IMG/VR virus record: IMGVR_UViG_3300007516_000001
Length of the DNA: 64,000 bases
Strand: one strand, 5' to 3'
Source: a virus
Part shown: piece by piece, positions 4,170-25,274 of the stretch
Position numbering within the stretch: the stretch's first letter is position 1
How the letters are laid out: each line of letters opens with the position of its first letter
Notes under the pieces: model-generated
Databases searched by the model: none
What the model saw: the letters and a program-made list of their open reading frames with translations, nothing else
Told to the model about the DNA's origin: nothing
Made by a program: the position numbers and the translations under genes

Positions 4170-4661
4170 ATGAAGAAATCAGAAAGGTTAGCTCTCGCCC
4201 AAATGGAAGCGTTGATAAAGACCCCTAAAAAGGTCAAGAATAATTCCAATGTTCAAGAGAAATTGGAAGAGGCCACTAAGGACTTAGTAAGAAAGAAAGT
4301 CAAAAAGAAAGTGGCAAAGAAAGTTGAACCGGAAGAAAAAAAGCCTAAATCCGATAAGAGGGTTAGAATTTTCCGTAATCTTGATTATGATAATGCCACT
4401 CGATTGGAGGCTAAAAAGCATCGTGACCAAGTTCGTCTTAAGGTCTTCAAGATTGTTGGACCCTATGCTGCAAAGCGTAGAGCAAATGCCCTTAAGAAGG
4501 ATGCAAGAAATGTAGCCTTTGAAAGTTTCAAAGAGTTATATACCCAAGAATACCTACTATCATTGGATAGAGTAGATGAGGTATTCAGAGGAGGCAATGA
4601 CAACATGAATGATATGGGTTTGTTCTTAGTTGACTTCAAAGCGTACCTGGGCCAGAAATAG
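4170..4661 (+). CDS. Lys-rich hypothetical protein (paralogue of 13302-13694)
   Basis: ATG at 4170 (MKKSERL). The track start at 4137 is non-ATG and lies inside the promoter cassette. The C-terminal FESFKELYTQEYLLSLDRVDEVFRGG...FKAYL matches the C-terminus of the 13302 ORF. Confidence 0.7.
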   Translation: MKKSERLALAQMEALIKTPKKVKNNSNVQEKLEEATKDLVRKKVKKKVAKKVEPEEKKPKSDKRVRIFRNLDYDNATRLEAKKHRDQVRLKVFKIVGPYAAKRRANALKKDARNVAFESFKELYTQEYLLSLDRVDEVFRGGNDNMNDMGLFLVDFKAYLGQK

Positions 4662-7526: not shown

Positions 7527-8285
7527 ATGAGAAATGTAAGAGCAATACCCGAATACATTCCGGCAAAAGAACTAAAGAATTTCAAACTTGCCCAATATGA
7601 ACTTTATCCTGACCTTGAAGAAGGGGGTGAAGAAGGAGGTTATTATACCCGTAGAAGTGGTAATGAAAGTTATTGGGGTTTAGATTATCATGAGCCCTTA
7701 GATTGTTTCTGTCTTATGGTTTTGGATTATGATATGTTGAGTCCAGGCCAACAAAGGAACTTTGAACTATTCAGAATCAATGCCCAAAAACAATTGAAAT
7801 ACCCGATTATTGTGTCTATGATAGAGAGCCTAGAAGAAGATGCTAGATATCTCGGCATAGATACAGGTTTCATCAGAGGTTATGCAAGAACATTAATGTC
7901 AGACCCGAATTTTAGCACCCTAAAGTTTTCACCCAAAGAAAAGCCCTCTGATAGACTGTGTAAATTAATGTTATATGCTAGCCTCATAGAGGCAATTATA
8001 AGAATTGGGCACGTAGAAAATACCGATGATTGGAACCCATATTTAAGAATCAAAACCGATGATGGACATTCAATAGAAACTCCTATCGGGTTCACAAGCA
8101 TCGAATATGTTAGTGAAGGAAAATTGGCTCCCATAAGAGAATATGATGGCCCTGAGAGTATGATACCCAAAGACTTTAGTCTTAAGATGGTAATAGAAGA
8201 ACAATACCTTGATAAGAAACTACCTCGAGCGTATTTATCCATAGAACTAATAAAGATAGTCGAAATTAAACTTCATGCTTGCTAG
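7527..8285 (+). CDS. hypothetical protein (N-terminal domain paralogous to 11820-12098)
   Basis: 252 aa ORF. ESYWGLDYHEPLDCFCLM matches DSYWGFDYDEKDDVYCFM of the 11820 ORF. Preceded by the AACTATTCAC leader at 7515-7524. Confidence 0.75.
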   Translation: MRNVRAIPEYIPAKELKNFKLAQYELYPDLEEGGEEGGYYTRRSGNESYWGLDYHEPLDCFCLMVLDYDMLSPGQQRNFELFRINAQKQLKYPIIVSMIESLEEDARYLGIDTGFIRGYARTLMSDPNFSTLKFSPKEKPSDRLCKLMLYASLIEAIIRIGHVENTDDWNPYLRIKTDDGHSIETPIGFTSIEYVSEGKLAPIREYDGPESMIPKDFSLKMVIEEQYLDKKLPRAYLSIELIKIVEIKLHAC

Positions 8286-8312
8286 ATAACCCCAAATATT
8301 AATCATAAAGAT

Positions 8313-8786
8313 ATGAACAACTTATTCGAGCAAATCAAATCACACAAGCACTATGAGGGCCTTTTACACGTAGTGGAAGATGCCAAAACTATAGAGGCCA
8401 TCTGCTTAATACTTTCAGAAGATACCCAACTACTAGAGTTAGTTCGGGCCGATAACTATAATGTTGAAACCGATAAGATATACCCGTTAACTGTTAACTA
8501 CAATATTGAACCCTATTGTGCAGGGTTTATAATTGTATTCAACATACCCAGTAACCACAACCATTTATTAAGCCGAAGCGAGCAACTTGACCTAAGCCGA
8601 CATTATAAGAATCGCCACATGGACTTACTTAAAAGATTGGGTATGCTTAAACATTGTTTCGGAAGTTATACACCCGAAGAAACAGAAGATGAGGAGGCCT
8701 CTTTAGATATTCAGGTTGATAGTACCCAATACCCTATAGTAATGATAACCCTCTTTGAAAATAATGAGGTACACTCGAATAATTAA
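8313..8786 (+). CDS. hypothetical protein
   Basis: 157 aa ORF. Its 3' end runs into the extended cassette 8 sequence. Confidence 0.7.
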   Translation: MNNLFEQIKSHKHYEGLLHVVEDAKTIEAICLILSEDTQLLELVRADNYNVETDKIYPLTVNYNIEPYCAGFIIVFNIPSNHNHLLSRSEQLDLSRHYKNRHMDLLKRLGMLKHCFGSYTPEETEDEEASLDIQVDSTQYPIVMITLFENNEVHSNN

Positions 8787-8792
8787 TATATA

Positions 8793-8845
8793 GGGTATGA
8801 TAGAAATGTCATACCCTTTTCTTATATTTGTTCTGTTAGCAATTC
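8793..8845 (+). promoter_or_regulatory. Stem-loop plus promoter cassette, copy 8 (variant leader)
   Basis: Hairpin at 8793-8816. TAtaTTTGTTCTGTTAGCAATTCA at 8827-8845. AACTATTCAC at 8860-8869. ATG at 8870. Confidence 0.7.
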
Positions 8846-8869
8846 AGCTATCCAATAAAAACTATTCAC

Positions 8870-9283
8870 ATGACAAAATTAAAGAATGCCTCCAATAGCA
8901 CTAATCTTACCCCGGAAGATAGAGCAGAAATAAAAGCCTTTATGTTATCAACTTTAAAAGGATATAATGCCGATGGAGATATAGATACCATCTATGTAAA
9001 TCTAGACCGACATACAGGACCAGGAATAAACTTTGTAGGTTTCCCTGATAATCCGGTTGAATACGAATACACAGAGGAACTATTAGCCGAAGCAATAGAC
9101 AAAGTGCTAGATACTTATTTAGAAACCTCAGATGCCAAGAAAGGTTTTTTTATATATACCTGTGGAGATAATAGAGAAGTATCATTGGACCACGTAGATG
9201 ATAATGATACAGACCAAACTCTTGCCTGCTTTGAAAGTGAAACCTTAGAATCAGGTAGACATTATTATATAGGGTATGATTAA
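8870..9283 (+). CDS. hypothetical acidic protein
   Basis: 137 aa ORF. Its stop codon lies within the cassette 9 hairpin. Confidence 0.7.
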   Translation: MTKLKNASNSTNLTPEDRAEIKAFMLSTLKGYNADGDIDTIYVNLDRHTGPGINFVGFPDNPVEYEYTEELLAEAIDKVLDTYLETSDAKKGFFIYTCGDNREVSLDHVDDNDTDQTLACFESETLESGRHYYIGYD

Positions 9284-9323
9284 TATATCATACCTTTTAC
9301 GTATATTTGTTCTGTTAATCAAT
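9273..9323 (+). promoter_or_regulatory. Stem-loop plus promoter cassette, copy 9
   Basis: Hairpin ggtatgat/atcatacc at 9273-9294. TAtaTTTGTTCTGTTAATCAAT at 9306-9323. ATG at 9338. Confidence 0.7.
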
Positions 9324-9337
9324 TAAGACTATTTACT

Positions 9338-9619
9338 ATGGCACACAAATCACAATGGGTTGATGTAATTGAATCTTTGACTCGGAAAACAAAGAAAGTG
9401 AAATTTACCACTAAAGAAATTTCAGATGAGGCTAGACAACTATATAAGGAGGGCTCCTTAAAAAGCAAAGCCGACTATCCTTGGTTTATGTCAAACTATG
9501 TTTCATCGGCATTAAAGAACATGGCTAAAGCAAAGACCCCAAAGATAGGATTTGCATGGAAAAAAGCAGGTACTAAAGGAAAAACAAAAATCTGGTATTT
9601 AATCAATAACCCCAAATAA
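9338..9619 (+). CDS. hypothetical basic protein
   Basis: 93 aa Lys-rich ORF downstream of cassette 9. Confidence 0.7.
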   Translation: MAHKSQWVDVIESLTRKTKKVKFTTKEISDEARQLYKEGSLKSKADYPWFMSNYVSSALKNMAKAKTPKIGFAWKKAGTKGKTKIWYLINNPK

Positions 9620-9645
9620 CATGGACACCCCAATAATAATATAGA

Positions 9646-9697
9646 GGGTATGATTGAAATGTCATACCCTTTACGTATATTTGTTCTGTTAATCAAT
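9646..9697 (+). promoter_or_regulatory. Stem-loop plus promoter cassette, copy 10
   Basis: Hairpin at 9646-9669. TAtaTTTGTTCTGTTAATCAAT at 9680-9697. ATG at 9715. Confidence 0.7.
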
Positions 9698-9714
9698 CAA
9701 TCAATCATATAACT

Positions 9715-9969
9715 ATGACCGAAGAAACTTTACTCCATGCAGATGCGATAGTATCAATGGAAACCCTACCCCAACAAATAGACCACATATCGGCATCAAT
9801 GCATAAAAAGGTGAGAATAGCAGGTGAGTACATTGACAAATTACCCGAAGAGGAGAAGGAAGAGGCTAATCAATATATTCAGAATCGGGTTGAGGCTTAT
9901 TACGAACCATCTATCCTAGGCTCCGATAATCAAATGTATAGCGTAGCCTCTCTTGACAATATGTTTTAA
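9715..9969 (+). CDS. hypothetical protein
   Basis: 84 aa ORF downstream of cassette 10. Confidence 0.65.
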   Translation: MTEETLLHADAIVSMETLPQQIDHISASMHKKVRIAGEYIDKLPEEEKEEANQYIQNRVEAYYEPSILGSDNQMYSVASLDNMF

Positions 9970-9995
9970 CCCATAATCAAATAACCCCAAATAAC

Positions 9996-10556
9996 ATGGA
10001 CACCCAAGACCCAATTGAACACTTGCATCAAGATATAATGCAAGCACTACCCATAGGGGTAATTCAAAATATCAAGGCAATTAAATTTGTAAGCGATTTA
10101 ATTGCTGCCGAAGCCTTAGTTGAAAATGTAATAGAAGAGCTCAGAAATGTAGACCTGAATCTGACCGAAAAAGAAGAGGATGAATATACCCTAAGAATCC
10201 TTAGATGCTACTATGCCCATAAGGTAAAAGTCTTAAGAAGCAATAGCAAACCCGAACCCCAAAACAAAAGAGATTTGGGTAGAGATATGGACGACATCAG
10301 AAAGGACTTCAAAGAGATACTCAAGGATATCACCCTAGAAGAAGCCGATGAACTATATAGCTATTGCAAAAGACGTTATGGCATCAAGGTTCAAAGGGCA
10401 ATAGAAAAACTCGATAATGAGAACCAAAGAATGCTTGATGAGATGGCTACCTTGGCCGGAACCCAAGAAGATTTGAAAAGAGAATTACAAACACTGAACC
10501 AGCTGCAATATGGGTACGATTTAGACAACCATTATCATGAGTCTGAGGTTGATTGA
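9996..10556 (+). CDS. hypothetical protein
   Basis: 186 aa ORF rich in charged, coiled-coil-like sequence. Confidence 0.7.
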   Translation: MDTQDPIEHLHQDIMQALPIGVIQNIKAIKFVSDLIAAEALVENVIEELRNVDLNLTEKEEDEYTLRILRCYYAHKVKVLRSNSKPEPQNKRDLGRDMDDIRKDFKEILKDITLEEADELYSYCKRRYGIKVQRAIEKLDNENQRMLDEMATLAGTQEDLKRELQTLNQLQYGYDLDNHYHESEVD

Positions 10557-10581
10557 TTAACACTTAAATCAAACCCGAATG

Positions 10582-10611
10582 AGGGGGTACTTAAATGTAC
10601 TCCCTTTTTTT
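10582..10611 (+). terminator. Intrinsic terminator
   Basis: 9-bp stem agggggtac/gtactccct with one G-U pair and a 6-nt loop, followed by a T7 run. Confidence 0.75.
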
Positions 10612-10769
10612 ATGCCAATTCTCCAAGAGTCAATATGATGGATTAAATAACCAGATACCCATAAGGTAATCAAGGCCCTCAACCAAGAGTACCCATCATC
10701 CCAAAACCTACAAGCTATAGAGGTATAACCATCAACCCCTACCACCCCAAAACAAAAAAAATAACAACT

Positions 10770-11606
10770 ATGAAAAGTAACAAAGTAAGAAGAGTACCCA
10801 GACCCTTAGGAACTACCATAATGTTAATGGAGTACCACAAACAACCCAACGCAAATATACAAAAACAAATAAAGGAGCAACTCACAAAACATCTCATCAA
10901 TACCTATGCCTCAAACAATCAAACCTTAAACGGAAGGATATATAGTATAGAAGAACTAGCAACTTATCTTCAGGTACCACAGAATCGGGTAATGGGTCAA
11001 GTAGTAGAGCATTCAATGCAGATGGCTCGGGTATTAGGAGAGGATGGGTCGATGAAAGAGATGTATGAAGGCTTGCTTTTAACTGCCCTAGGTTGGGCCC
11101 TTGGCGATCGGGTCAAAGTTACCAAACAATTGGAGCTGTTGAACCGGAGCCAAAATGGCAAGTACAAACCATTTATTTCAGGTGAAGTTAATGGCCTTTT
11201 AGGTACCCTTTTGAAGAGCCAAGGAGCTTTATTAGAGGTAGCCAAGACAATGAAACCAGAAACACAAAGGCACCCACATCTACCGGGCCATAGCCAGGTC
11301 ATTAACGGGAACGTCCTATATAATAATGGAGTAAATGATGGCAGTGTTTCAAGTGTACCTGGCTCAAAGGCATTGACGGTCGATGAGGCCTCTAAATTAA
11401 TTAATGAAAGGGTTCAGGCGCCCATTGCCCTTAACCCTTTTAACGATTACCTGGAGGGTACCCCAAACATCTCAGCCCTTGGAGAAGTATCCAGCATATC
11501 TTTGGAGCCTGCTGTTCATTCCCACGACACCCAAGACGATCCGGGTACCCATGCTAGCCACCGGGCAAGAGCAAGAGGCTATGATGATGAGGTACCCATG
11601 ACTTAA
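10770..11606 (+). CDS. hypothetical protein
   Basis: 278 aa ORF, visibly more GC-rich than its neighbours. Preceded by a 158-nt C/A-rich untranslated stretch. Confidence 0.7.
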   Translation: MKSNKVRRVPRPLGTTIMLMEYHKQPNANIQKQIKEQLTKHLINTYASNNQTLNGRIYSIEELATYLQVPQNRVMGQVVEHSMQMARVLGEDGSMKEMYEGLLLTALGWALGDRVKVTKQLELLNRSQNGKYKPFISGEVNGLLGTLLKSQGALLEVAKTMKPETQRHPHLPGHSQVINGNVLYNNGVNDGSVSSVPGSKALTVDEASKLINERVQAPIALNPFNDYLEGTPNISALGEVSSISLEPAVHSHDTQDDPGTHASHRARARGYDDEVPMT

Positions 11607-11760
11607 TAATACCCCCCACTACCCTGGAGCCAGCAGAGTAGGGCGCCATACTGATGCCTTGCCTTATTATAGATTAAATAGGTTGGTTGGGTACCCTTAG
11701 ACCTACTCTGCTGGCTTGCTCTACCTGCCTACTCTACCGTGACCTCTACCCGAAATATTT
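11604..11760. repeat. GC-rich structured non-coding island A
   Basis: Perfect 14-bp inverted repeat gccagcagagtagg (11629-11642) / cctactctgctggc (11702-11715). CCTACTCT and CCACTACCCTGG motifs are shared with island B (12800-13078). Confidence 0.7.
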
Positions 11761-11790
11761 AATTAGGATTTGGGCAATAAAGGATGGATA

Positions 11791-11806
11791 TTTGCATTCA
11801 ATCAAT
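11791..11806 (+). promoter_or_regulatory. Degenerate promoter cassette (no hairpin)
   Basis: gaTAtTTGCATTCAATCAAT resembles the cassette core. AACTATTCAC at 11810-11819. ATG at 11820. Confidence 0.4.
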
Positions 11807-11819
11807 TAAAACTATTCAC

Positions 11820-12098
11820 ATGAAATACATTCCAGCATTAAAAATTAACTCACTTCCCTTAGAGCAATTTGGCTTAAAGGAGGAAGAGGGCAAGAAAGGG
11901 TTTTATTCTCCTATGAATGAGGATGATTCTTATTGGGGTTTCGATTATGATGAGAAGGATGATGTGTATTGCTTTATGTCTTGGGGCATTCATGCAGAAC
12001 ATAGTGAAGAAAGAAAAAAGCAGGTAGAATTTATCTTGGAGTTTTATCGGTTATCAACTTTCGTTCTCGGTTACGAAATGGAATTTGATTGCTTTTAA
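11820..12098 (+). CDS. hypothetical protein (paralogue of the N-terminus of 7527-8285)
   Basis: ATG at 11820 (MKYIPALK), right after the AACTATTCAC leader. The track start at 11784 lies inside the promoter-like sequence. Confidence 0.7.
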   Translation: MKYIPALKINSLPLEQFGLKEEEGKKGFYSPMNEDDSYWGFDYDEKDDVYCFMSWGIHAEHSEERKKQVEFILEFYRLSTFVLGYEMEFDCF

Positions 12099-12104
12099 TT
12101 AAAG

Positions 12105-12173
12105 AATAGGGCCCATTACTATTAATTAGGATATGGGTCCTATTCTATCTATATTTGTTCTGTTAGTAATTCA
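12105..12173 (+). promoter_or_regulatory. Stem-loop plus promoter cassette, copy 11 (different hairpin, same promoter core)
   Basis: 12-bp stem aatagggcccat/atgggtcctatt (12105-12144) with one G-U pair. TAtaTTTGTTCTGTTAGTAATTCA at 12154-12173. AACTATTCAC at 12186-12195. Confidence 0.65.
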
Positions 12174-12196
12174 ACTAACAATCTAAACTATTCACT

Positions 12197-12373
12197 ATGA
12201 AGGCATCACAAATTTTCAATCGTGGCATTATTCGTCACAATGCAGAATCTAAAGTATTAGTTCTGAAAGAAGGAGTTAAAGGAAGATATAAGGGTCCTAA
12301 AACTAAAAGTGATTCAATGGGTCCAATCTTCGCAGTTCGTTCTATTCAGCCTAAACAAAATTCATGGGACTGA
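12197..12373 (+). CDS. hypothetical small protein (58 aa, below the ORF-track cutoff)
   Basis: ATG at 12197, two nt after the AACTATTCAC leader. MKASQIFNRGIIRHNAESKVLVLKEG..., with TGA at 12371-12373. Confidence 0.55.
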   Translation: MKASQIFNRGIIRHNAESKVLVLKEGVKGRYKGPKTKSDSMGPIFAVRSIQPKQNSWD

Positions 12374-12465
12374 TATTATTCTTCGGCAAAATCATATTTG
12401 GAGTCCTATCAATTATTTTGATAGGTGCTTCAATGGGTGCTCTTCCAACTGATGAGGAGCAATGA
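12364..12465 (+). CDS. hypothetical 33-aa hydrophobic peptide
   Basis: ATG at 12364, overlapping the upstream stop. MGLILFFGKIIFGVLSIILIGASMGALPTDEEQ has a single predicted transmembrane helix. Confidence 0.4.
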   Translation: MGLILFFGKIIFGVLSIILIGASMGALPTDEEQ

Positions 12466-12481
12466 CAATATCAAGTAAGAT

Positions 12482-12513
12482 TTCTCCCATGGGTCCTAAT
12501 TCTCATGGGAGAA
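12482..12513 (+). terminator. Perfect 10-bp hairpin (possible terminator or processing site)
   Basis: ttctcccatg / catgggagaa with a 12-nt loop. No strong T-run follows. Confidence 0.4.
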
Positions 12514-12620
12514 TCCTATTAACAAAGGCTACATATTGCCTATAGGCCCCCACGAGGACAGGCCTGAACACGACATACAATCTCTTTACTCTGTGAATAG
12601 GAGTAGATTGAATAACCCCA

Positions 12621-12648
12621 AAGGGTCTTTAGAAATAGAGGCCCTTTT
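12621..12648 (+). terminator. Putative intrinsic terminator
   Basis: 7-bp stem aagggtc/ggccctt followed by TTTT. Confidence 0.5.
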
Positions 12649-12737
12649 CGGTGTGTAAAATTCAAGAACCTACTCTGCTTTGGCGTGATCTAAAATAGGA
12701 GTAGGTATTAAGGGCCTACCTGGCTTAAAGGCAATAT

Positions 12738-12797
12738 AGGCCTATAGGCATAGTATAGTAATTAGGCCTATAGGCATAGTATAGTAATTAGGCCTAA
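12738..12797. repeat. 26-bp tandem direct repeat, 2.3 copies
   Basis: aggcctataggcatagtatagtaatt occurs at 12738-12763 and 12764-12789, then a partial aggcctaa. Each unit holds the palindrome GCCTATAGGC and GGCATAGTATAG. Confidence 0.9.
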
Positions 12798-12799
12798 GG

Positions 12800-13078
12800 G
12801 GTCTGGTACCCTACCTACCTACTCTACCCATGCCCAGGGTACTAGAGGGGCCAATGGAGAGGGCAGGCACCCTCTGCCTAGGTTAGGTAGGTAGGTAGGT
12901 AGCAAGGGTACCCAATAAATTAATTAATAATCACCCACTGCCCTGGCACGTGTAGGGTACCGGAGACTCGAAGACCTTGCTTGCTTGCCCATACAATCGA
13001 ACCTGCTTGCCTGCCTGCCCAACCACCCCACTGCCCTGACCTTATTGCTCGAACCTTGCCTGCTCGGATAGTCAATCT
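12800..13078. repeat. GC-rich structured non-coding island B
   Basis: Inverted repeat ggtaccctacctacctac (12805-12822) / gtaggtaggtag-caa-gggtacc (12890-12912). (AGGT)n microsatellite at about 12884-12902. Pyrimidine-rich CTTG/CCTG repeats at 12975-13065. CCCACTGCCCTG occurs twice. No ORF of 60 aa or more. Confidence 0.75.
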
Positions 13079-13190
13079 GTGAATTTGTCTACATTGCATC
13101 CTTATTTAGAATCATTCCAAATAAAGAAAAAAAGTGAATTATTTTTTTATTTATGTTATTTGAATGAATTTATTTCTATCTTTGTAGAAG

Positions 13191-13219
13191 AAAGAACGGA
13201 AAAAAAATCGTTCTTTTTT
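13191..13219 (+). terminator. Putative intrinsic terminator
   Basis: 8-bp stem aaagaacg/cgttcttt with a 10-nt A-rich loop, followed by a T-run. Confidence 0.55.
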
Positions 13220-13301
13220 GTTCTTTGCTTTGTGGACTTTTGCAATTGTTTTGCAAATTTTAATAATAAACTTTTTTTAACCAATCTAATAACTATTCAC
13301 C

Positions 13302-13694
13302 ATGACAAAATTATCTGATAATACAAACAATGTGGAACGTACAAACGTTACTAAGAAATTCGTGAATCTATCCTACGAAACAATGGATAAGAACGCACAA
13401 AAGAAATTCAGAGAGAAGCGAAGAACTGAATTATTCGCCATTATTGCTAAGAGAGAGATGTCAATTCTTAAAAAAGATAGTACATTTGATTCCAATGCAA
13501 ATTTTGAATCCTTTAAAGAGTTTATAACTAACAATTATAACTTAGCATTATCTCAAGTTGATGCGATTTTTAAAGGTCAAGCAGATAACAATAGAAAACA
13601 ATCGTTTGCTGTCTATATTGCAGCGTTCAAAGTTTATCTTTCTAATCCTACTAAAGCAAAAGTAGCTAAAGCAAGCAAAGCTAAGAAAGCATAG
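13302..13694 (+). CDS. Lys-rich hypothetical protein (paralogue of 4170-4661)
   Basis: 130 aa ORF. FESFKEFITNNYNLALSQVDAIFKGQ...FKVYL matches the 4170 ORF. AACTATTCAC leader at 13291-13300. Lies in a markedly AT-rich island. Confidence 0.75.
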   Translation: MTKLSDNTNNVERTNVTKKFVNLSYETMDKNAQKKFREKRRTELFAIIAKREMSILKKDSTFDSNANFESFKEFITNNYNLALSQVDAIFKGQADNNRKQSFAVYIAAFKVYLSNPTKAKVAKASKAKKA

Positions 13695-13700
13695 TAAACT

Positions 13701-13747
13701 AAATGAATGTAAAAATAGAAAACTGTCCTCTATTTTTACATTCATTT
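13701..13747. terminator. Strong bidirectional hairpin terminator
   Basis: Perfect 19-bp stem aaatgaatgtaaaaataga / tctatttttacattcattt with a 9-nt loop. A- and T-runs flank it. Confidence 0.8.
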
Positions 13748-13927
13748 TTGGACAAATACGTCTACAGACCCCCCCTCGCTAAGCCAGGAGCCTAGGGCCC
13801 TCTTGAATGCGAAATACTTAATTGACCATCTGACAACCCGATAACCCCAAAATTTTACCAGACCCCCTACAGCCTATGAACCTAAGACAAATTGCCCGAA
13901 TTGCCATCATATCTTAAACCCGATACC

Positions 13928-14191
13928 ATGACAACTACCATCCTCAAATTCTCAATTACCTCCCTAGGTATTACTGAGCTATCTGTACCCGAAGACTTTA
14001 CCCCTACCACTGCCCAACTTTGTAGAGGCTACTTTACTCTATGGGGCCATGGAGACCTCGAAAAACCCACTAAGACTTTAACCGTCTTTGCCCAATATAC
14101 CGGAGAGAGCATTCCCCCCAGCTTCGTACACCTCGATACTATTCAAACCCATAATGGCTTTGTACTTACCCATATATATGTGAAAATATGA
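13928..14191 (+). CDS. hypothetical protein (paralogue of 14188-14481)
   Basis: First ATG is at 13928 (MTTTILKF); the track start at 13892 is TTG. Shares a spaced pattern with the next ORF: LTE...AQ...G..DL...H(I/Y)(F/V). Confidence 0.6.
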   Translation: MTTTILKFSITSLGITELSVPEDFTPTTAQLCRGYFTLWGHGDLEKPTKTLTVFAQYTGESIPPSFVHLDTIQTHNGFVLTHIYVKI

Positions 14192-14481
14192 AAACCATAA
14201 TTGATGTAGACCTGAAAGCCCATGGCCTAACAGAAGTTTACCTTTCCCCCAAATTTCGTCCCCTATGTGCCCAATACCGAGACCATAAGATAGTTCTATA
14301 TGGGTATGCTGACTTGAAAGTGAAAGCCGTAAAGACCCGATACATGGCTATACTATCAGGAGGAAGTATCTCTCACCCCAAGCCCAAATATATTACCTCA
14401 GTCCAAATCTCTGACTCCTTCCTAATGATACACATATTCAAATACCCAATTCCTAAAGACAGCCCCTATGACAATTCCTGA
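14188..14481 (+). CDS. hypothetical protein (paralogue of 13928-14191)
   Basis: 97 aa ORF with an ATGA overlap with the upstream gene. Confidence 0.65.
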   Translation: MKTIIDVDLKAHGLTEVYLSPKFRPLCAQYRDHKIVLYGYADLKVKAVKTRYMAILSGGSISHPKPKYITSVQISDSFLMIHIFKYPIPKDSPYDNS

Positions 14482-14908
14482 AATTATTGATGCCATGATG
14501 GCCCAAGATTTAAAGTACCCTTTAAACTTTGGAGATGCCACTGCCCTTGTTAACCGTTTGGATTCTGATAGAAGTCCCCACATGAAAACCCGCCTTGTGT
14601 TTACAGAGCATCAACATAACCACGTGTTGGCTACCATCTATCGAATGCCCCCGGATTTAGTTCCCCTCCTAATCGACAGCCCCGTACAATTCAATGCCTT
14701 CTGGTATGAACGGATGCAGAACCTGGGCAAACAGATAAGCCATGACTTCCCGGGTTTAATCTTTGCAGTGTATGTGACTATACCCAATCAAGGGGGTAGA
14801 ACCCAGTATATTTCCAATGGAGAACGTCAGGATATGATAAACCTTATGAAAGAAATGCTAGAGCGCTTTCAGAAGGATACCCCAGGACCCCCCTCAGACC
14901 TATTCTAA
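14468..14908 (+). CDS. hypothetical protein
   Basis: 146 aa ORF with an overlapping start. Confidence 0.7.
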   Translation: MTIPEIIDAMMAQDLKYPLNFGDATALVNRLDSDRSPHMKTRLVFTEHQHNHVLATIYRMPPDLVPLLIDSPVQFNAFWYERMQNLGKQISHDFPGLIFAVYVTIPNQGGRTQYISNGERQDMINLMKEMLERFQKDTPGPPSDLF

Positions 14909-14925
14909 TAACTAAAACATAACCC

Positions 14926-15228
14926 ATGAACCAAGGAAAACTGAATGCTATGATTTTAGCTATGCTGCCCGACCTTAATTCCGGCAATAAAGTTTATGTT
15001 ATAGGTTGTAAAGACCCCATAGATATAACCAACCGTTTAAAAGAAAAAGGTATTGAAGTTTCATGGAAACCCATATTTGCATCACGTCCCTTAAAACCCG
15101 TTTATAACTTGCATAGCCTTGAAGGAGAGATACTAACTTTTGAAGGGGGTAGTAAGATTCAAACAGGATTTATGTTCTACTGTTCTCCCAAGCCTGACCC
15201 CCTAAAAACTAATGATTCTAATAACTAA
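14926..15228 (+). CDS. hypothetical protein
   Basis: 100 aa ORF. Confidence 0.65.
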   Translation: MNQGKLNAMILAMLPDLNSGNKVYVIGCKDPIDITNRLKEKGIEVSWKPIFASRPLKPVYNLHSLEGEILTFEGGSKIQTGFMFYCSPKPDPLKTNDSNN

Positions 15229-15233
15229 AACCC

Positions 15234-15407
15234 ATGAACCAACCCAACACACTCTTAATAAGAAGGGCCTCCTATATCATAGAATGCCCCCTTTGTAAAT
15301 TTGCCGCATCCTATAAGACCGATGATGAATGGCGAAAAACTAAAGTCTGCCCCAAATGCCAAAACCCCAACCTTTCCAAATACACTACTTCAACTGAGAA
15401 ATTATGA
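15234..15407 (+). CDS. hypothetical zinc-ribbon protein (57 aa, below the ORF-track cutoff)
   Basis: MNQPNTLLIRRASYIIECPLCKF...KVCPKCQNP has CxxC-17-CxxC. The stop overlaps the next start (ATGA at 15404). Confidence 0.6.
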   Translation: MNQPNTLLIRRASYIIECPLCKFAASYKTDDEWRKTKVCPKCQNPNLSKYTTSTEKL

Positions 15408-15667
15408 AAGTATATTATCAAGAGGGCCTTCGACAAAGCCCTACCACGAGAGTGGTTAAGGATTGTTATGATATCCTAGTAACGAAGGGATTAATAAAGG
15501 TTAATATCTCAAAAGAAGATTCTAAAGATTTGCTACGGCAGCTCAGGAAGATGCAGGGAATGACCAAAGTACACAAACATAAGATATCTAAAGGATATGA
15601 ACTGTGTTTTGTTGCTCCTGACAGATGGAAGCAGATAATGGGTATTAAACTTAAATCCAATGACTAA
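15404..15667 (+). CDS. hypothetical protein
   Basis: 87 aa basic ORF, translationally coupled. Confidence 0.65.
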   Translation: MKVYYQEGLRQSPTTRVVKDCYDILVTKGLIKVNISKEDSKDLLRQLRKMQGMTKVHKHKISKGYELCFVAPDRWKQIMGIKLKSND

Positions 15668-16016
15668 GAAAAAAACATTAGACCCCGGGGATTGCATATA
15701 CATCTACCGGAAGGGGGTATTAGCCGATATAGATATCGTGACTATGGTTACCCCAACCTTCGCTACTACCCTTCATAATTATAAAATGAACCGCACCCTC
15801 CAAAAAGAAGGCAAACTAAGAAAAAGCGCAATACCCTCTCAGATGTATCTTACCATGGAATACGGAGAGCCTTTGACTGAGGAGAAAGCCCAACAAGAGA
15901 GGGCTAAATTAGCAACTTCCCATAGAAGGGTTATCAAGGAGAGGCTTAAGGAGCTAGATTCTTTAACCCTTCTTAAGATAGTAGATATCATCCAAGCTAC
16001 TGCCTGGAATACATAA
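15660..16016 (+). CDS. hypothetical protein
   Basis: 118 aa ORF with an overlapping start. Confidence 0.65.
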   Translation: MTKKKTLDPGDCIYIYRKGVLADIDIVTMVTPTFATTLHNYKMNRTLQKEGKLRKSAIPSQMYLTMEYGEPLTEEKAQQERAKLATSHRRVIKERLKELDSLTLLKIVDIIQATAWNT

Positions 16017-16036
16017 CACACCCTAAATACAAGATT

Positions 16037-16068
16037 GGGGGTCCAACTGATTAAATTGGACCCCCTTT
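16037..16068. terminator. Bidirectional terminator between convergent genes
   Basis: Perfect 10-bp stem gggggtccaa / ttggaccccc with a 9-nt loop, followed by TTT. Confidence 0.8.
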
Positions 16069-16182
16069 CTCGCATAAACAGACCTCTTTCACGTGTCAAT
16101 TCATATCTATATAGTATACTCCGTATAACACCGAGTACATATTTGATTATCTATTGATTGCAAACTACCACACTCAGGACAC

Positions 16183-16593
16183 CTAACTATTGACGGCTGC
16201 TTCGGTTGCCGGGTTATCTTCTCCCTTTGGTTTGGGCTTAGATTTTTCTTCAAGGAGCTTTGAATGAAGAGTGGTAATTTCTGTCCGGTACTTTTCTGCA
16301 CCCGGCCATCCGTATTGGGCATACCAGTTTCTAAGTTGCGCATAATGGTCATGATAAGTTTCGGTTTCACGGAGATAGATTTTATCGGGTTCAATTTTAG
16401 TTCCTTTACTTATCTGGCCAGCAGAATTTGGTAAATGGGTAATGCCTTTAGCAATTATCTCTTTGCCCATAATCGTTACCGATGTTGGAATCTTTTTAGC
16501 CATCATCGGTAATTCTTTCGATATTGCTAAAAGGGCCCGACTAATTTCGGGAGTTAATTTATTAAGAGGCTTTCTACCCTTGGGTGGTTTCAT
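16183..16593 (-). CDS. hypothetical protein
   Basis: Minus-strand ORF. The preferred start is the ATG at 16593 (MKPPKGRK), 14 nt downstream of the GGCATACTATA motif (16608-16618, minus strand). The track start at 16629 would place that motif inside the gene. Confidence 0.6.
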   Translation of the reverse strand: MKPPKGRKPLNKLTPEISRALLAISKELPMMAKKIPTSVTIMGKEIIAKGITHLPNSAGQISKGTKIEPDKIYLRETETYHDHYAQLRNWYAQYGWPGAEKYRTEITTLHSKLLEEKSKPKPKGEDNPATEAAVNS

Positions 16594-16651
16594 AGATGTT
16601 TCTGTATTATAGTATGCCCGAATATGCAAGACTACCCTAATATATTCCTAT

Positions 16652-17632
16652 ATGATTATATTAGGAGTTTGTGGTGGTAATGGAGTATTTCTGCATCCAT
16701 CAAGAAAATATTTGATAGGTAATATTGAACCCCGGAGTTTATTTCATACTAAGGGGGATATGCAATGGCGTTCCAACTTTAAAACTCCTATATCAAAGGA
16801 TGATAAGCCCTTTCGAGGTACACACGTAGATATTATAATCGGAGCTCCGGATTGTGGGCATTCTTCTGTGTTCTCTTACTCACGTGCCAAGAAATTATCT
16901 GAACCTAGTAAAAATGATAGTTTAAAAACATACGTGGATTGTGTTAATGCCTTCAAACCCCATCTGTTCTTCATGGAAAACCTTGAAAAAGGCTTTGAGA
17001 GGATGCTTCTGCATGAGTTTTTTCCCGGTTATTTCTATAAAACTATTATTGGCAGTGTTTCTATATATGGAAATTCCCAAGTTACTCGAAAAAGGGCCCT
17101 ATTAATAGGGTGCAAAGTTGAGGAGCACTTAGAATACTTTAAAAACCCTAAAGGAGTACCTCTTTTTACTTCGGGTGAACTTCTAAAAGGTTGTAAAGCT
17201 GAGGATATAACCCAGGGCCACATAAGAGAGGACATCAATAACACTATTACACTCTATGGAGGCTTCAAAGATACCCTAAAGAACATTAGAAAGGGTTGGT
17301 TAGATAATCCCGATATGCACAAATGGAAAGTAGAAGGTAGAAACTTTACTACAGCCCCGGGAGTCTACATTAATAGGGCTAACCAGTTTCCAAAGACTGC
17401 AAGAAAGGCAAATAGGCAGTTTAATCATTGGGGTCTTACAATGAGTCCTCGAGAATTAGCTAAAATACAAGGAGTACCCGACACATTCAAGATATACATA
17501 GGCCTTGACCCCCTACATTCAACCTATTGGATTAATAAGGGTAGAACTTCAGTAACTAAATGTCCCCCGTACGAAATGGGGGCCTGGATTAAACGTAAAT
17601 GTAAAAAATTATGGCGAACAGAATTTCAATAA
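16652..17632 (+). CDS. DNA (cytosine-5)-methyltransferase-like protein, divergent
   Basis: Motif order is typical of C5-MTases: I LGVCGGNGVF; IV GAPDCGHSS (canonical PPCQ replaced by PDCG); VI FFMENLEK; VIII QVTRKRALLIG; IX SPRELAKIQGVPDTF. Confidence 0.65.
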   Translation: MIILGVCGGNGVFLHPSRKYLIGNIEPRSLFHTKGDMQWRSNFKTPISKDDKPFRGTHVDIIIGAPDCGHSSVFSYSRAKKLSEPSKNDSLKTYVDCVNAFKPHLFFMENLEKGFERMLLHEFFPGYFYKTIIGSVSIYGNSQVTRKRALLIGCKVEEHLEYFKNPKGVPLFTSGELLKGCKAEDITQGHIREDINNTITLYGGFKDTLKNIRKGWLDNPDMHKWKVEGRNFTTAPGVYINRANQFPKTARKANRQFNHWGLTMSPRELAKIQGVPDTFKIYIGLDPLHSTYWINKGRTSVTKCPPYEMGAWIKRKCKKLWRTEFQ

Positions 17633-18303
17633 ATACCCTTACTATGATTATATTAGGGGTTTTAATAATCCTATTGCTGCTCGATAGGTGTAATGATAGG
17701 AAAGTCCTATCTAATTTATCAGACAAGATGGAATCAATATCCATCAATGTTCCTGAGGTAATATTTAAACGTAATTCAGTTGACTCCAGCATCGTTGCTA
17801 TCCAAAAACAAATAATCTTAAACAATCAAGAAGGAAACGCACTAGGGCTTACTAATTTAAAGACTGAATTGGGGGAGTTAAAGAAGATAACGAACAGAAT
17901 AGCCCTCAGAACAGAGTATTTGATAAGTAATGTAGAGAAACCCTATGAACCAGGAACCGTTATTACAGAGCTACCTGATGGCAAATACTTAAAATTACCC
18001 TATTCTACCTCCTTTGGGGACTCCTTATATTCGGTTGGATTTACTCAAACCCTGAATGGACCCCGGTTAGATAGCTTAAGAATATGGGATAAGACCCATA
18101 TAACCCTAGGAACTTTAAAAAAGGGCTTCTTTAAAAGAAGTGAACCAACCCTCTTATTCGAGAACCAGAATAAATATATAACCGGGATTGGATTAACAAA
18201 TTATACCATTAAGTATAAGCCTGCATGGTATGAAACAAGATTATTCAACATGGCTGCAGGAGCCTTTCTTTTATTCGGAGCACAACAAATAACTAAACCA
18301 TGA
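17611..18303 (+). CDS. membrane protein, possible lysis accessory protein
   Basis: 230 aa ORF with hydrophobic helices at the N-terminus (LTMIILGVLIILLLL) and C-terminus (LFNMAAGAFLLFGA). Sits immediately upstream of the endolysin. Confidence 0.35.
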   Translation: MANRISINTLTMIILGVLIILLLLDRCNDRKVLSNLSDKMESISINVPEVIFKRNSVDSSIVAIQKQIILNNQEGNALGLTNLKTELGELKKITNRIALRTEYLISNVEKPYEPGTVITELPDGKYLKLPYSTSFGDSLYSVGFTQTLNGPRLDSLRIWDKTHITLGTLKKGFFKRSEPTLLFENQNKYITGIGLTNYTIKYKPAWYETRLFNMAAGAFLLFGAQQITKP

Positions 18304-18947
18304 AATCAAAATTCAGCATCACTAAGAAATACCTTACTAATGGGCAATACCTAACGGAAAGGTTTGAAAAGACCATGATATTTCTTCATTTTACCGCAGG
18401 AGGTAGTAAAGAGAGTTCTTGGGAATGGTGGAACTCAACACCTGAGAGAATTGGAACAGCTTACCTAGTGGGTAGAGATGGTAATACACTTGAAGCATTT
18501 GACCCAAGAATGTGGGCATCTCATTTAGGAGTTAAGGGTAGAAATCAATTGGATAAAAATAGTATAGGTATAGAACTATCTAATTGGGGGCCCTTGAAAC
18601 AAGTCAATGGAAAGTATTTTGCATACCCGGGGAATTATAGTAGAACTGAAATACCTATCGAAAAGGTTCAGATTTATGATAAACCTTGGAGAGGCTTTAC
18701 TGCTTATGAAAAATTTACCGAAAATCAGATTCGGGGTTTGGTTGACTTAATTGTGCATTTGAAAACCGGAGCATTTCCTAATCTTTCAACCAAGGTTCAA
18801 GATGGTTTTGAAAACTATAATGGGCTCTTGGTATCAAAGAACATGAAGGGAATATGGAGCCATTCATCGGTAAGGAAAGATAAGATGGATATACACCCTC
18901 AACCTAATCTACTAGAAGCCCTTAATACTCTTTCTTTAATACTATAG
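18300..18947 (+). CDS. N-acetylmuramoyl-L-alanine amidase endolysin (amidase_2/PGRP type)
   Basis: MIFLHFTAGGS, YLVGRDG, SIGIELSNWG and WSHSSVRKDKMDIHP follow the T7-lysozyme/PGRP amidase motif order. Confidence 0.8.
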   Translation: MKSKFSITKKYLTNGQYLTERFEKTMIFLHFTAGGSKESSWEWWNSTPERIGTAYLVGRDGNTLEAFDPRMWASHLGVKGRNQLDKNSIGIELSNWGPLKQVNGKYFAYPGNYSRTEIPIEKVQIYDKPWRGFTAYEKFTENQIRGLVDLIVHLKTGAFPNLSTKVQDGFENYNGLLVSKNMKGIWSHSSVRKDKMDIHPQPNLLEALNTLSLIL

Positions 18948-18967
18948 TAAATATACCCCAATAATAG

Positions 18968-19005
18968 GATATGCTATTATATCTTTAGATATATAATAGC
19001 TATCC
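18968..19005. repeat. Imperfect 17-bp inverted repeat upstream of the terminase gene
   Basis: ggatatgctattatatc / gatatataatagctatcc with one bulge. Could be a terminator for the lysis genes or a packaging or regulatory site. Confidence 0.5.
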
Positions 19006-19038
19006 ATATTAGTTAATACCTAATACGCGTGCGAGAGG

Positions 19039-20568
19039 ATGGCTAAAAATAAGAAATCAGATTTATATAACCGGGTTCTAACGGCAGAGGAGTTTGCGAC
19101 TTTACAAAAAGTACAACAGAGCCCTCTTACGTTTTCCCAGTTTATAAAGGTAATACATCCAAAGAAGGGTAAAATACCCTTCAATTTGTTCCCTTACCAG
19201 AGGGCTGTCTTATATGCCTTCTTGATGTTCCGGTTTAATATCATCCTCAAATTTCGACAGGCAGGTATTACAGAACTAATATCCCTTTATTGCCTGTGGT
19301 TGGCTATGTACCACCCTTTTAAGAATATCGTAATCATATCCATCAAGGATAGGGTAGCCAAGAAGGTACTAAGGATGATTAAGTTCATGTATAATAACTT
19401 ACCTGATTACCTCAAAACACCGGTAATTAATGGCAAGGGCGATGACATAGGAACTTCTACCGAAATGGAATTTGCTAATGGTTCACTAATTACCTCTATT
19501 CCTACCACAGAAGAAGCAGGTCGTTCAGAGGCAGTATCATTACTTATTATTGATGAGGCTGCGGTAGTTAGATGGATATCCAAGATTTGGGCTGCTGCTT
19601 TTCCAACCCTATCTACCGGAGGGGCTGCAATCGTAAACTCTACTCCTTATGGTATGGGTAACTGGTATCATCAAACTTGGGTAGATGCCTGCACCGCAGC
19701 AAACAGCGTATTCAACCCAATACGCTTAAAATGGCAAATGCACCCGGAACGTGACCAACTCTGGTACGATGAAACCCGACAAGCACTTGGACCCCGAAAG
19801 ACGGCCCAGGAAATTGATGGTGACTTTCTCCAGTCAGGTAACACGGTATTTGATATGGATGATATCAAAGCAATTGAAGATTGCATACTAGGAGAAGAGG
19901 ATTACAAGCCTATATTGATGTATAAACCTCAGATGGGTTCTGGTTATATCAGAATATACCGATATGCGCTTGAAGATGAAAAATGCTTCATAGGTGCAGA
20001 TATTGCCACAGGAAGAGGTGATGACTACTCAGCCTTCTCTATAATGAATGCTGCAGGTGAAGAATTAGCCTCCTACAAAGGCAAAATAGGGTTATTCCAA
20101 TATGCGGCATTATTGGGAGAAATGGGTAAGACTTTTAATATGGCTACCATTGCACCCGAAGGAAATGATATTGGAGCAGCAGTAGTAGAGAAGCTCCAAG
20201 AACAAGGCTACCCCAATCTATACTATTCAACCCAAATCATTAAAAAGAAGGGTGAGAAAAAACCTAAGCAAAGTGAAGTTCCCGGCTGGTATACTACTAC
20301 TGCTACTAGGCCTGTGATGATTAATGAATTGGAAGATGATGTAAGGAATGATACCGTTGAAATCAAAGACCCCGAGTTTGTAAGAGAAGCCTATACGTTC
20401 ATATATGACTCTAATAATAAACCGACAGCATTAGGAAGAAACTCCGCTAGGGATGATGAGGACACGCTAGATTCTGTAATTTTCAACGACGATTCAATAA
20501 TAGCCAAAGCTATAACGAATAGAGTAAGAAAAACCAGGGTAAAGAACCCTTTAATTTTACCAAGATAA
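19039..20568 (+). CDS. terL: terminase large subunit
   Basis: 509 aa ORF. ATPase region KFRQAGITE with Walker B LLIIDEAA. C-terminal RNaseH-like nuclease signature GADIATGRGDDYSAFSIMN. Sits directly upstream of the portal gene. Confidence 0.85.
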   Translation: MAKNKKSDLYNRVLTAEEFATLQKVQQSPLTFSQFIKVIHPKKGKIPFNLFPYQRAVLYAFLMFRFNIILKFRQAGITELISLYCLWLAMYHPFKNIVIISIKDRVAKKVLRMIKFMYNNLPDYLKTPVINGKGDDIGTSTEMEFANGSLITSIPTTEEAGRSEAVSLLIIDEAAVVRWISKIWAAAFPTLSTGGAAIVNSTPYGMGNWYHQTWVDACTAANSVFNPIRLKWQMHPERDQLWYDETRQALGPRKTAQEIDGDFLQSGNTVFDMDDIKAIEDCILGEEDYKPILMYKPQMGSGYIRIYRYALEDEKCFIGADIATGRGDDYSAFSIMNAAGEELASYKGKIGLFQYAALLGEMGKTFNMATIAPEGNDIGAAVVEKLQEQGYPNLYYSTQIIKKKGEKKPKQSEVPGWYTTTATRPVMINELEDDVRNDTVEIKDPEFVREAYTFIYDSNNKPTALGRNSARDDEDTLDSVIFNDDSIIAKAITNRVRKTRVKNPLILPR

Positions 20569-22097: not shown

Positions 22098-22100
22098 CCC

Positions 22101-23546: not shown

Positions 23547-23613
23547 GTTGCCTGATTACAACACCCTATTTTGAATAAGTAACGAATTTTAAAACCTTAA
23601 TCTTGAAACTATT

Positions 23614-24024
23614 ATGCCAGAATCTTTAGGCTCGGAGACCAAAACACTTTTGATAAAAAGTGAGTCTCACAAAATGGCCCATGAATTTACTGCTCTTGCG
23701 GCTCTGAAAAAGACCCAATTAGTAAAGTTGAATACTGCAGGTCAAATCGTCGCTCTTGCGGCAGATAACTCAGAACATTTACATATCGGGTATGTTATCC
23801 ATGATGTAGCAGCCGGTAAAAAGGGAACCGTAGTAATGAGGGGTTATTCCATCATAAAAGGTATTTCTACTGGGAATAATGCAGGCCCAGTTATGTACAA
23901 GGGCTTCGACGCTGTCGAGAACTTAAACTCCTATGCAACTGCAACTTCACAAGATGTATGTGTAGGATGGGCTCTAGAAACAGCCATTGCGGATGAAGAA
24001 ATCTTTGTTGTTATCAAAGACTAA
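23614..24024 (+). CDS. putative head decoration/cement protein (DUF2190-like)
   Basis: 136 aa ORF just upstream of the major capsid gene. The Gly/Val-rich beta pattern resembles DUF2190 proteins. Confidence 0.35.
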   Translation: MPESLGSETKTLLIKSESHKMAHEFTALAALKKTQLVKLNTAGQIVALAADNSEHLHIGYVIHDVAAGKKGTVVMRGYSIIKGISTGNNAGPVMYKGFDAVENLNSYATATSQDVCVGWALETAIADEEIFVVIKD

Positions 24025-24075
24025 TCAGAACCCAAAAAACCTATAAATAATTGTTCAACCCCAAATAACCCTCAA

Positions 24076-25232: not shown

Positions 25233-25274
25233 CTTTGACTCTATAAGATTATAATAACCCCCAATACTACCCCC

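Follow-up and report, generated by a model that had tools for sequence, protein, structure and literature searches.

The recruitment elements of processive antiterminators, namely ops for RfaH, opsX for UpxY, the leader hairpin for LoaP, and nut and qut, are short and oriented and occur in one or two copies. The DNA elements that recruit UpxY proteins in Bacteroides are operon-specific, span ~40 bp and lie in leader regions (PMC11685472). For replication, the T4 origins oriF and oriG have been modeled as a promoter with a downstream unwinding element and an R-loop primer (PMC3016281), and T4-type phages contain mobile promoter-stem-loop cassettes (PeSLs; PMC2839356, PMC4122927). Here we analyzed a non-coding locus, called the hub in the following, in a window of 64 kb (the whole stretch under study, taken from the IMG/VR virus record IMGVR_UViG_3300007516_000001). 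The window covers most of a circularly assembling phage genome of ~77.9 kb, of which the other 13.9 kb were recovered as L009:2998-16910 (L-numbers are labels of contigs or loci of relatives and strains). An initial annotation had described two GC-rich islands, A and B, flanking a small gene cassette, and had listed structured non-coding RNAs (ncRNAs), a replication origin, a packaging region and the ends of a mobile cassette as candidate roles without choosing between them. Judged by sequence and gene order, the two islands are pieces of one non-coding control region that is conserved in a large family of uncultured Bacteroidota-type phages. We propose that the hub most likely acts on DNA or transcription at the switch to the late genes and not via stable RNAs. 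The role that we rank first was not on the earlier list, and we put it forward tentatively, from anatomy and co-occurrence: the hub may be a transcription switch at the start of the late-gene block, in which the modules would be oriented elements that serve for recruitment or as promoters.

The two islands are related, GC-rich and non-random, as had been proposed, since their motifs are found far above chance and are absent elsewhere in the genome. Three copies of CCCACTRCCCTG were observed in the window (at 11615, 12934 and, as the predicted third copy, 13027) compared to 0.31 expected by chance, five copies of CCTACTCTRC (all at 11633-12827) compared to 0.16, and four copies of GGGTACCC compared to 0.86; the palindrome GCCTATAGGC has three copies. 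Within the window all copies of these four motifs are confined to 11456-13038, and no copy of CCTACTCTRC, CCCACTRCCC or GCCTATAGGC was found in the 13.9 kb of the genome outside it. The site GGTACC is similarly clustered, with 9 of its 14 genomic occurrences falling in 10973-12961. The genome has 10 perfect inverted repeats with stems of 12 bp or more and loops no longer than 120 nt, compared to ~0.8 in shuffled sequences, and the islands hold four of them; we rejected a general enrichment of palindromes, as the enrichment is limited to specific motifs. The arms of the hairpins are themselves repeated palindromic or inverted short motifs (GGTACC, GCCTATAGGC, CCTAC/GTAGG). Moreover, the 200-nt extremes of GC content of the whole genome adjoin here, the maximum (55%) at 12841 and the minimum (21.5%) at 13101, and the lowest-GC window begins 167 nt past the core of module B.

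The motifs and stems named in the initial annotation were all recovered, with positions differing by 1-2 nt at most. The shared TAATAAT..CCCACTRCCCTGG...GTAGGG module is located at 11604-11643 and 12926-12957, and the CCT(G/A)-type pair consists of CCTGCCTACTCTACC at 11724 and CCTACCTACTCTACC at 12814. The motif copy reported at 12670 exists and starts at 12669, and the perfect long-range stem of island A proved to be 15 bp long (11628-11642 with 11702-11716) and not 14 bp. Island B contains the expected hairpin with its inner AGAGGG/CCCTCT stem (12805-12913), the microsatellite, which reads (TAGG)5.8 at 12879-12902, and the G-poor repeat tract (12962-13078, with 43 C and 22 G among 117 bases). 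It also holds true that neither island has an open reading frame (ORF) of at least 60 amino acids (aa), and that the element belongs to a phage, whose genome carries TerL, structural and replication genes. The amount of non-coding DNA was estimated correctly in kind but too low, as it totals ~1,050 nt (11607-11819 plus 12466-13301) instead of about 900 nt.

Conservation in relatives, which the same annotation had asked for, was found for the type and position of the islands and for the oriented module. The relatives have a common layout, in which a homologue of a 278-aa gene is followed by island A, two to four promoter-bearing cassettes, island B, an AT-rich segment and a gene for a basic protein, and both islands contain an oriented module of ~40 nt that is composed of a TA-rich box and CCCACTRC...CGTGT. 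In the closest relative, L020 (a 78.5-kb contig with a TerL 73% identical), the end of the 278-aa homologue is followed by a GC-rich island, four promoter-bearing small cassettes, a second GC-rich island (59% GC), a segment of 18% GC and a homologue of the Lys-rich 130-aa protein. When the modules of the window were used as queries against both strands of 43 kb of L020, the two best local matches were the two syntenic sites, with top scores exceeding those of all 60 shuffles. The distance from module B to the next gene start is 368 nt in both genomes, despite the differing tract in between. L026 (TerL 56%, with a 278-aa homologue) has a 22-nt module of its own, TATATATAATTRCCATAGCAGG, which is directly repeated, once at each of the two corresponding positions, and L112 (TerL 65%) has a recognizable version, TTAATACCGCACCGCAGCACC, just upstream of its AT-rich segment. 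For a broader comparison we used the module B core pattern CCC[AG]CT[AG]C.{0,8}CGTG[TC], which was defined after inspecting three examples. This pattern was found in 10 loci, those of the window, of L020 and of eight relatives from IMG/VR whose TerL is about 58% identical. Each locus has exactly one occurrence, always on the + strand and followed by the AT minimum at a distance of 65-226 nt, and five shuffles of 2.46 Mb gave 0 occurrences. The AT minimum itself (12-19% GC) is found 6-8 kb upstream of TerL in about 22 relatives, and the segment carries tandem TAnnTTTG promoters before the small basic-protein gene (L040, L041 and MT121964). Module copies, of which there are one to three, are alike within a genome and diverged between genomes, as would be expected for sites of a lineage-specific factor.

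Beyond the modules, most of the island sequence cannot be aligned between relatives, and L020 alone is alignable in part. Positions 12466-12735 align with L020 at 66% identity, and 12481-12648 corresponds to L020:1630-1825; the CCTACTCTGC hairpin, which the aligned L020 sequence lacks, is a window-specific insertion. What recurs are types of sequence. Island A of L020 and L026 has analogous long stems with GTAGG/CCTAC-type arms, and in L020 the counterparts of the CCTAC boxes, GCCTACCC and AAAAATAAAT, stand in the same place (403 and 1840); L020 also has four copies of GCTTATAGGCCTAAA-type repeats, comparable to the 26-nt tandem repeat. GGTACC clusters were found at the matching place in eight further relatives (p <=0.03), and ATAGGCC-type repeats and (CCNN)n / (NNGG)n arrays recur in relatives as types and not as alignable sequence. 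Homologues of the Lys-rich protein are encoded at L020:2898-3293 and at window 4170-4661, and no homology was found beyond L020. All features of the hub are listed in Table 1.

Table 1. Features of the hub and of its flanking genes, in window coordinates
Feature	Position	Strand	Remarks
278-aa gene	10770..11606	+	directly 5' of island A
Module A: TTAATAATA-CCCCCCACTACCCTGG...GTAGGG	11603..11643	+	overlaps the stop codon of the 278-aa gene
Perfect 15-bp inverted repeat AGCCAGCAGAGTAGG / CCTACTCTGCTGGCT	11628..11716		59-nt loop
CCTAC-type boxes CTACCTGCCTACTCTACC, CCTCTACCC	11721..11752	+	upstream of the cassette promoter
Cassette 1	11759..12098	+	degenerate host-type promoter GATATTTG, AACTATTCAC leader, 92-aa gene 11820-12098
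Cassette 2	12103..12465	+	hairpin 12103-12146, TATATTTG box 12150, AACTATTCAC leader 12186
Genes of cassette 2		+	58-aa gene 12197-12373; uncertain 33-aa ORF 12364-12465
Terminator-type hairpins	12481-12512; 12620-12648	+	second one followed by TTTT; whole stretch 12481..12648
Degenerate module-like stretch CCCCCACGAGG...ACATACA	about 12547-12579	+	between the two terminator-type hairpins
CCTACTCTGC...GGAGTAGG hairpin	12668..12706		missing from the aligned L020 sequence
Exact 26-nt tandem repeat, 2.3 copies	12737..12796		each unit with palindrome GCCTATAGGC and GGCATAGTATA
109-nt imperfect palindrome	12805..12913		GGTACC at both ends, arms (CCTA)n / (TAGG)n, inner AGAGGG/CCCTCT stem
Module B: TTAATAATC-ACCCACTGCCCTGGCACGTGTAGGGTACCGGAGACTCG	12923..12975	+	conserved core 12934-12953
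C-rich, G-poor tract	12962..13070		CTCGAA-CCTTGC(C/T)TGC-type repeats; third CCCACTGCCCTG at 13027
AT-rich segment	13079..13301	+	lowest GC of the genome (21.5%); TATCTTTG box 13177, AACTATTCAC leader 13291
Intrinsic terminator, then T run	13188-13219	+	within the AT-rich segment
130-aa Lys-rich protein gene	13302-13694	+	first gene after the hub
19-bp perfect-stem terminator hairpin, then T run	13701-13747	+	directly after the Lys-rich gene

Two details of the table deserve a comment. The hairpin following the Lys-rich gene is the longest perfect inverted repeat of the genome and is probably a strong terminator. The sequence GGCATAGTATA, found in the tandem units at 12747 and 12773, is one mismatch away from GGCATACTATA, of which three exact copies plus near copies stand 8-14 nt ahead of start codons (window 52125, 59686, 16618 on the - strand, and 57699), two of them sharing ATACAGAAAC after the site.

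The position of the hub within the genome brings transcription into focus. Nearly all genes lie on the + strand. The first 11.6 kb consist of small genes, many of them with a repeated unit of hairpin, TATATTTG box and leader, and 13.3-46 kb form a long + strand block with the lysis, terminase and all structural genes (TerL at 19039, portal, major capsid protein, sheath, tape measure and baseplate, within 19-46 kb), in which every called gene apart from one (16186-16596) is on the + strand. The replication genes follow at 46.9-66 kb and encode a DnaB-like helicase, primase, helicase, PolA, SSB, UvsX, a UvsY-like protein, an exonuclease and SbcCD. The TAnnTTTG promoter box and leaders without a Shine–Dalgarno sequence point to a host among the Bacteroidota. 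Outside the window, at L009:5374-6084 (about 66.4-67.1 kb on the genome), we found a gene for a 236-aa protein of the NusG family. Residues 12-182 of this protein match positions 1-155 of the 164 in the UpxY profile (E 7e-9), and it also matches the LoaP, Spt5 KOW and NusG models, all of these matches including UpxY being below the curated cut-offs. Its homologue in the distant relative L002 matches the NusG, RfaH and LoaP models, and a NusG-like homologue is present in five of five complete relatives tested. On the strength of these profile matches the 236-aa protein is a candidate phage-encoded processive antiterminator.

Taking both observations together, we propose the following mechanism. 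The hub is placed where the run of promoter-bearing small genes ends and the long + strand block starts, and two cassettes with promoters of their own (11759-12465) would have been inserted into it and have split it. The module, a TA-rich box followed by CCCACTRCCCTGG..CGTGT, would be read by the transcription machinery in one direction, either as a phage-specific promoter or, more specifically, as a site in the leader at which the NusG-family antiterminator is recruited, in the manner of ops, opsX, nut or qut. The module would be transcribed, and RNA polymerase modified there could read through the terminators at 12481-12512, 12620-12648, 13188-13219 and 13701-13747 into the late genes. The hairpins of the hub would otherwise terminate transcription, and the GGTACC, GCCTATAGGC and CCTAC/GTAGG arrays create these hairpins and probably also bind phage proteins. 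We infer a recruitment or promoter site from the fixed orientation of the module, its one to three copies, its divergence between lineages and its position before terminators and a long block, which are properties of promoters and antitermination sites and fit an iteron array less well.

Several observations weigh against this proposal. The TA-rich box of the module is not the Bacteroidota TAnnTTTG -7 consensus, and a loose pattern of a TA box plus a C-run occurs 11 times genome-wide compared to about 9 times in shuffles. Neither an ops-like YGCGNAGCR motif nor a GCGGTAGC hairpin was seen by eye in the modules. The NusG-like match stays below the family cut-offs, and the target of the protein could lie elsewhere. 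The strict core pattern was unmatched in the L023, L033 and L036 loci, which are three of the five complete relatives that carry the NusG-like gene. The clustering of GGTACC in the upstream gene, the 26-nt tandem repeat, the 109-nt palindrome and the flipped tract after module B are not explained by such a switch itself, except that the first three could be terminators or protein sites, and a similar-style 590-nt island is present or absent between the near-identical L113 and L114. The wider claim is possible but doubtful, namely that a very large, uncultured family of Bacteroidota-type myoviruses (roughly 75-87 kb) switches on its late genes via a phage-encoded, UpxY/LoaP-like NusG paralogue recruited at lineage-specific, oriented modules of ~40 nt, two copies of which lie in a repeat-rich hub, which would make it a phage ops/opsX system, functionally parallel to lambda Q/qut or N/nut.

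We also considered a general late promoter of the T4 type (TATAAATA or a TA box plus C-run) and rejected it, because there is neither genome-wide enrichment nor a consistent picture in the relatives. As side observations, suggestive boxes precede the major capsid gene and gene 25275, and TATAAATA, TATAATA or TTAATAATA boxes stand shortly upstream of the major capsid gene and a few further late genes (24042, 25250, 18992, 35430 and L020:15052). The box at 25250, TATAATAACCCCCAATACTACCCCC, resembles module A; these boxes may be late promoters, with the pattern not being enriched genome-wide. A phage sigma factor at 46144-46776 was rejected as well, since Pfam and NCBIfam give no support.

The same anatomy can be read as a replication origin, in which the arrays bind an initiator and a promoter-like module fires into an A+T-rich unwinding segment. 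The exact tandem repeat, the repeated palindromes and the 109-nt palindrome of the hub would suit such a role, as would the adjoining GC maximum and minimum, of which the juxtaposition or the AT minimum is conserved in relatives. As in T4 oriF/oriG, a promoter-like element directly precedes the segment of highest A+T content in the genome, and the phage has T4-like recombination and replication genes (UvsX, UvsY-like, SbcCD, DnaB-like helicase and primase), although no initiator was recognized among the proteins scanned. Furthermore, the two related repeat islands about 1.3 kb apart resemble the ori/crr arrangement of P4, an iteron origin. Candidate iterons exist (the 26-nt tandem with 2.3 copies, GCCTATAGGC with three copies and CCTACTCTRC with five), but their spacing and orientation are irregular and the modules are 0.9-2.3 kb apart and do not form a tight iteron array. 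We found no DnaA box in the hub (TTATCCACA, one mismatch allowed, searched from 8244 to 24117), and the cumulative GC skew makes no global turn there. The AT-rich segment holds ordinary host-type promoters, which could account for its composition, and the similar-style island was dispensable between L113 and L114. In L020 the + strand of the tract that follows module B is rich in G and, by our own inference, would be expected to favor R-loops, yet this tract is C-rich in the window. Compared with the T4 and P4 types of origin, a MotA-type box, a recognizable initiator and a skew signal were not found, and the modules are not tight iterons. Altogether we regard an origin, the strongest of the alternatives, as rather unlikely.

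The arrays would bind an initiator in an origin and probably bind phage proteins in a switch, and the gene upstream of island A encodes one candidate. Homologues of the 278-aa protein are found at the same position in L020, L026, L112 and L113/L114, and the gene always immediately precedes the hub. Its product has a conserved N-terminal part of ~160 aa and a variable C-terminal half; the corresponding second half of the gene is GC-rich and contains five GGTACC sites, so that motifs of the hub reach into the 3' half of a gene for a helix-turn-helix-like protein, which counts in favor of an origin. The helix-turn-helix-like segment, IEELATYLQVPQNRVMGQV, spans about residues 58-80 and precedes two long helices. 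For the family (366 representatives), neither Pfam nor the PDB gave a match. The AlphaFold2 model has low confidence, with a predicted local distance difference test (pLDDT) score of 51 overall and of 71-87 for residues 10-90, and a fold search with this low-confidence model gave no significant match. The protein is one candidate binder of the palindromic motifs in the hub.

A motif cluster that extends into a neighboring DNA-binding-like gene is also often seen in packaging (pac) sites, and this leads to the question whether the hub is a packaging initiation site or contains the physical ends of the genome. The repeats would then bind the small terminase, possibly the 278-aa protein, and either the first cut or a fixed terminus would lie in the hub. 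The ends of assembled contigs are consistent with this. Among 11 contig starts located within 10 kb upstream of TerL, seven lie between -7.6 and -8.9 kb, L033, L038 and L041 begin in non-coding sequence of the hub type, L036 and L042 begin beside such sequence, position 1 of MT121964 is in island-type sequence, and two Logan contigs end at window 12767, within the 26-nt tandem. The (CCNN)n arrays together with a long palindrome also resemble the terminal regions of T7- and T5-type phages. However, contig breaks are equally explained by the tandem repeat, the hairpins, local polymorphism (L038) and the extreme base composition. The hub does not adjoin TerL but ends 5.7 kb upstream of it, the T4 type of this TerL suggests headful packaging without fixed ends, and TerS was not identified in the protein profile searches. 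The direct terminal repeats of IMG/VR relatives are 77, 98 and 127 nt long, as expected of assembler k-mer overlaps, and a longer repeat was not found. The closest look-alike in the literature, compared by description, is the untranslated injection-stop (iss) region of T5 (10.1101/866236). That region lies in a true terminal repeat and has eight ordered DnaA boxes, while the hub has no DnaA box and gives no evidence for fixed ends. We consider packaging improbable, though still a live alternative. The clustering of contig ends at the hub nevertheless matters for judging genomes called 'complete' and for calls of terminal repeats.

Next, we evaluated the structure of the hub at the level of RNA, as each island could encode a stable structured ncRNA, either a regulatory small RNA or a cis-acting, put-like antitermination RNA. 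Several segments indeed fold better than shuffled sequences (z -2.4 to -5), the relatives have long stems in island A, and in L020 a paired insertion preserves the pairing of the hairpin 12481-12512 (our own reading of the alignment). Each module is preceded by a TA-rich box that could act as a promoter, and a terminator follows about 285 nt downstream of module B. On the other hand, the folding energy of the main palindrome of island B (12805-12913) is -60.6 kcal/mol for the + strand (z -3.1) and more favorable for the - strand (-64.6 kcal/mol, z -5.0), and the region directly after module B is unstructured (z +1.7). Across the whole window Rfam gave no match at the gathering score, a search of 11300-13400 with E up to 10 yielded nothing beyond noise, and a tRNA scan found nothing. 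A putative stem in the module of the L040 clade is broken and not compensated in L027 and L039, and most of the island sequence, as described above, is not alignable between relatives. The tract after module B provides a further argument. It is C-rich in the window and G-rich in L020 (GC skew -0.24 vs +0.31), and the two tracts share a 14-mer and a 13-mer in reverse orientation only, which are colinear; the best reverse alignment has p ~0.03. The comparison suggests that the tract is likely, although not proven, to be inverted in L020 relative to the window. A small protein encoded on its G-rich strand was rejected, as no conserved frame exists. With no Rfam match, folding on both strands, arms built from motifs, an apparently inverted tract and little alignable sequence, the ncRNA candidate of the initial annotation becomes very improbable, and action at the level of DNA or transcription is favored over RNA genes. 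Strain variants (~99.95% identical) show zero differences within the islands and are therefore uninformative on covariation or repeat-length polymorphism. Separately, a T-run at window 13279, in the AT-rich promoter segment, differs among strain assemblies, with an extra T in L004 and L015.

Finally, we focused on the genes between the islands. These are small cassettes with their own promoter and AACTATTCAC leader, two in the window, four in L020 and two in L026, and the only gene common to the window and L020 is the 58-aa gene, whose product is 45% identical to a 54-aa protein of L020. The order of terminator hairpin, promoter and leader at the start codon that characterizes PeSLs was found at 12103-12196 and in degenerate form at 11759-11819, and roughly 10 further copies of such units exist in the early region; the GC-rich islands lack it. 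The near-identical strains L113 and L114 differ by the presence or absence of a 730-nt piece, which comprises a 63-aa cassette and 590 nt of island-type DNA, and L113:4497-5400 and L114:3785-5360 differ also by a 60-aa gene. The breakpoints lie in the repeated promoter-leader units and not in the modules, and such an insertion or deletion fits shuffling of the kind described for PeSLs. The bracketing of a gene cassette by the islands was thus correctly observed, but the layout is better understood as one ancestral control region, and the simplest reading is that this one hub was invaded by small early-gene cassettes. In the alternative reading, the modules would be att-like or recombination sites that form the termini of a mobile cassette with the small genes at 11820-12465. 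As direct repeats that flank a gene set of varying number the modules would be suited for this, yet they are only about 60-70% alike within a genome, no integrase or transposase match was obtained in the region, module B holds its place relative to the AT-rich segment despite different cassettes, and it is the promoter-leader units of the cassettes that recombine. We consider mobile ends the least probable of all these roles.

The family itself is known mainly from metagenomes. TerL is of the T4 type, and more than 6,000 metagenomic proteins match it at E <1e-50, but no cultured phage with at least 57% TerL identity was found and blastn against the INPHARED phages gave no match. A TerL scan of metagenome contigs found nothing, single-protein scans of viral contigs with TerL and with the 278-aa protein gave one short relative only, and exact motif scans of viral contigs with the module and the CCTACTCTGC hairpin gave no match. 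Some further observations concern other parts of the genome. The + strand genes at 13892-15400 in the window and at L020:3300-5300 have a GC skew of -0.3 to -0.47, so that the coding strand is C-rich there, the reverse of the rest of the genome. A C-5 cytosine methyltransferase (window 16652-17632) is syntenic near TerL in about 35 relatives, is conserved there throughout the family and has no close solved structure, and a 16-bp perfect inverted repeat lies at 46172-46223, between the tail genes and the replication module.

Easily located by its GC maximum beside the AT minimum, 6-8 kb upstream of TerL, the hub is the most distinctive cis-acting landmark of this phage family, and it accounts for the tendency of assemblies from this family to break at this place. 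If it were an origin or a packaging site after all, it would be the missing ori or pac of the family. If the link between the module and the NusG paralogue is true, this would be a phage with its own UpxY-type processive antiterminator plus its recognition sites. Compared with the known systems, the small genes of the hub share the units of hairpin, promoter and leader with the PeSLs of T4-type phages, and the GC-rich islands and modules differ from PeSLs in being restricted to a single locus, in having another sequence and in their fixed synteny. In contrast to ops and opsX, the element of the hub is embedded in a much larger repeat-rich region and shows neither YGCGNAGCR nor GCGGTAGC. The ops, opsX, nut and qut sites stand in leaders upstream of terminators, head long operons and co-vary in sequence with their factor; the modules of the hub would resemble them in being short, oriented and placed ahead of terminators and a long + strand block, in a phage family that encodes a NusG-family protein.

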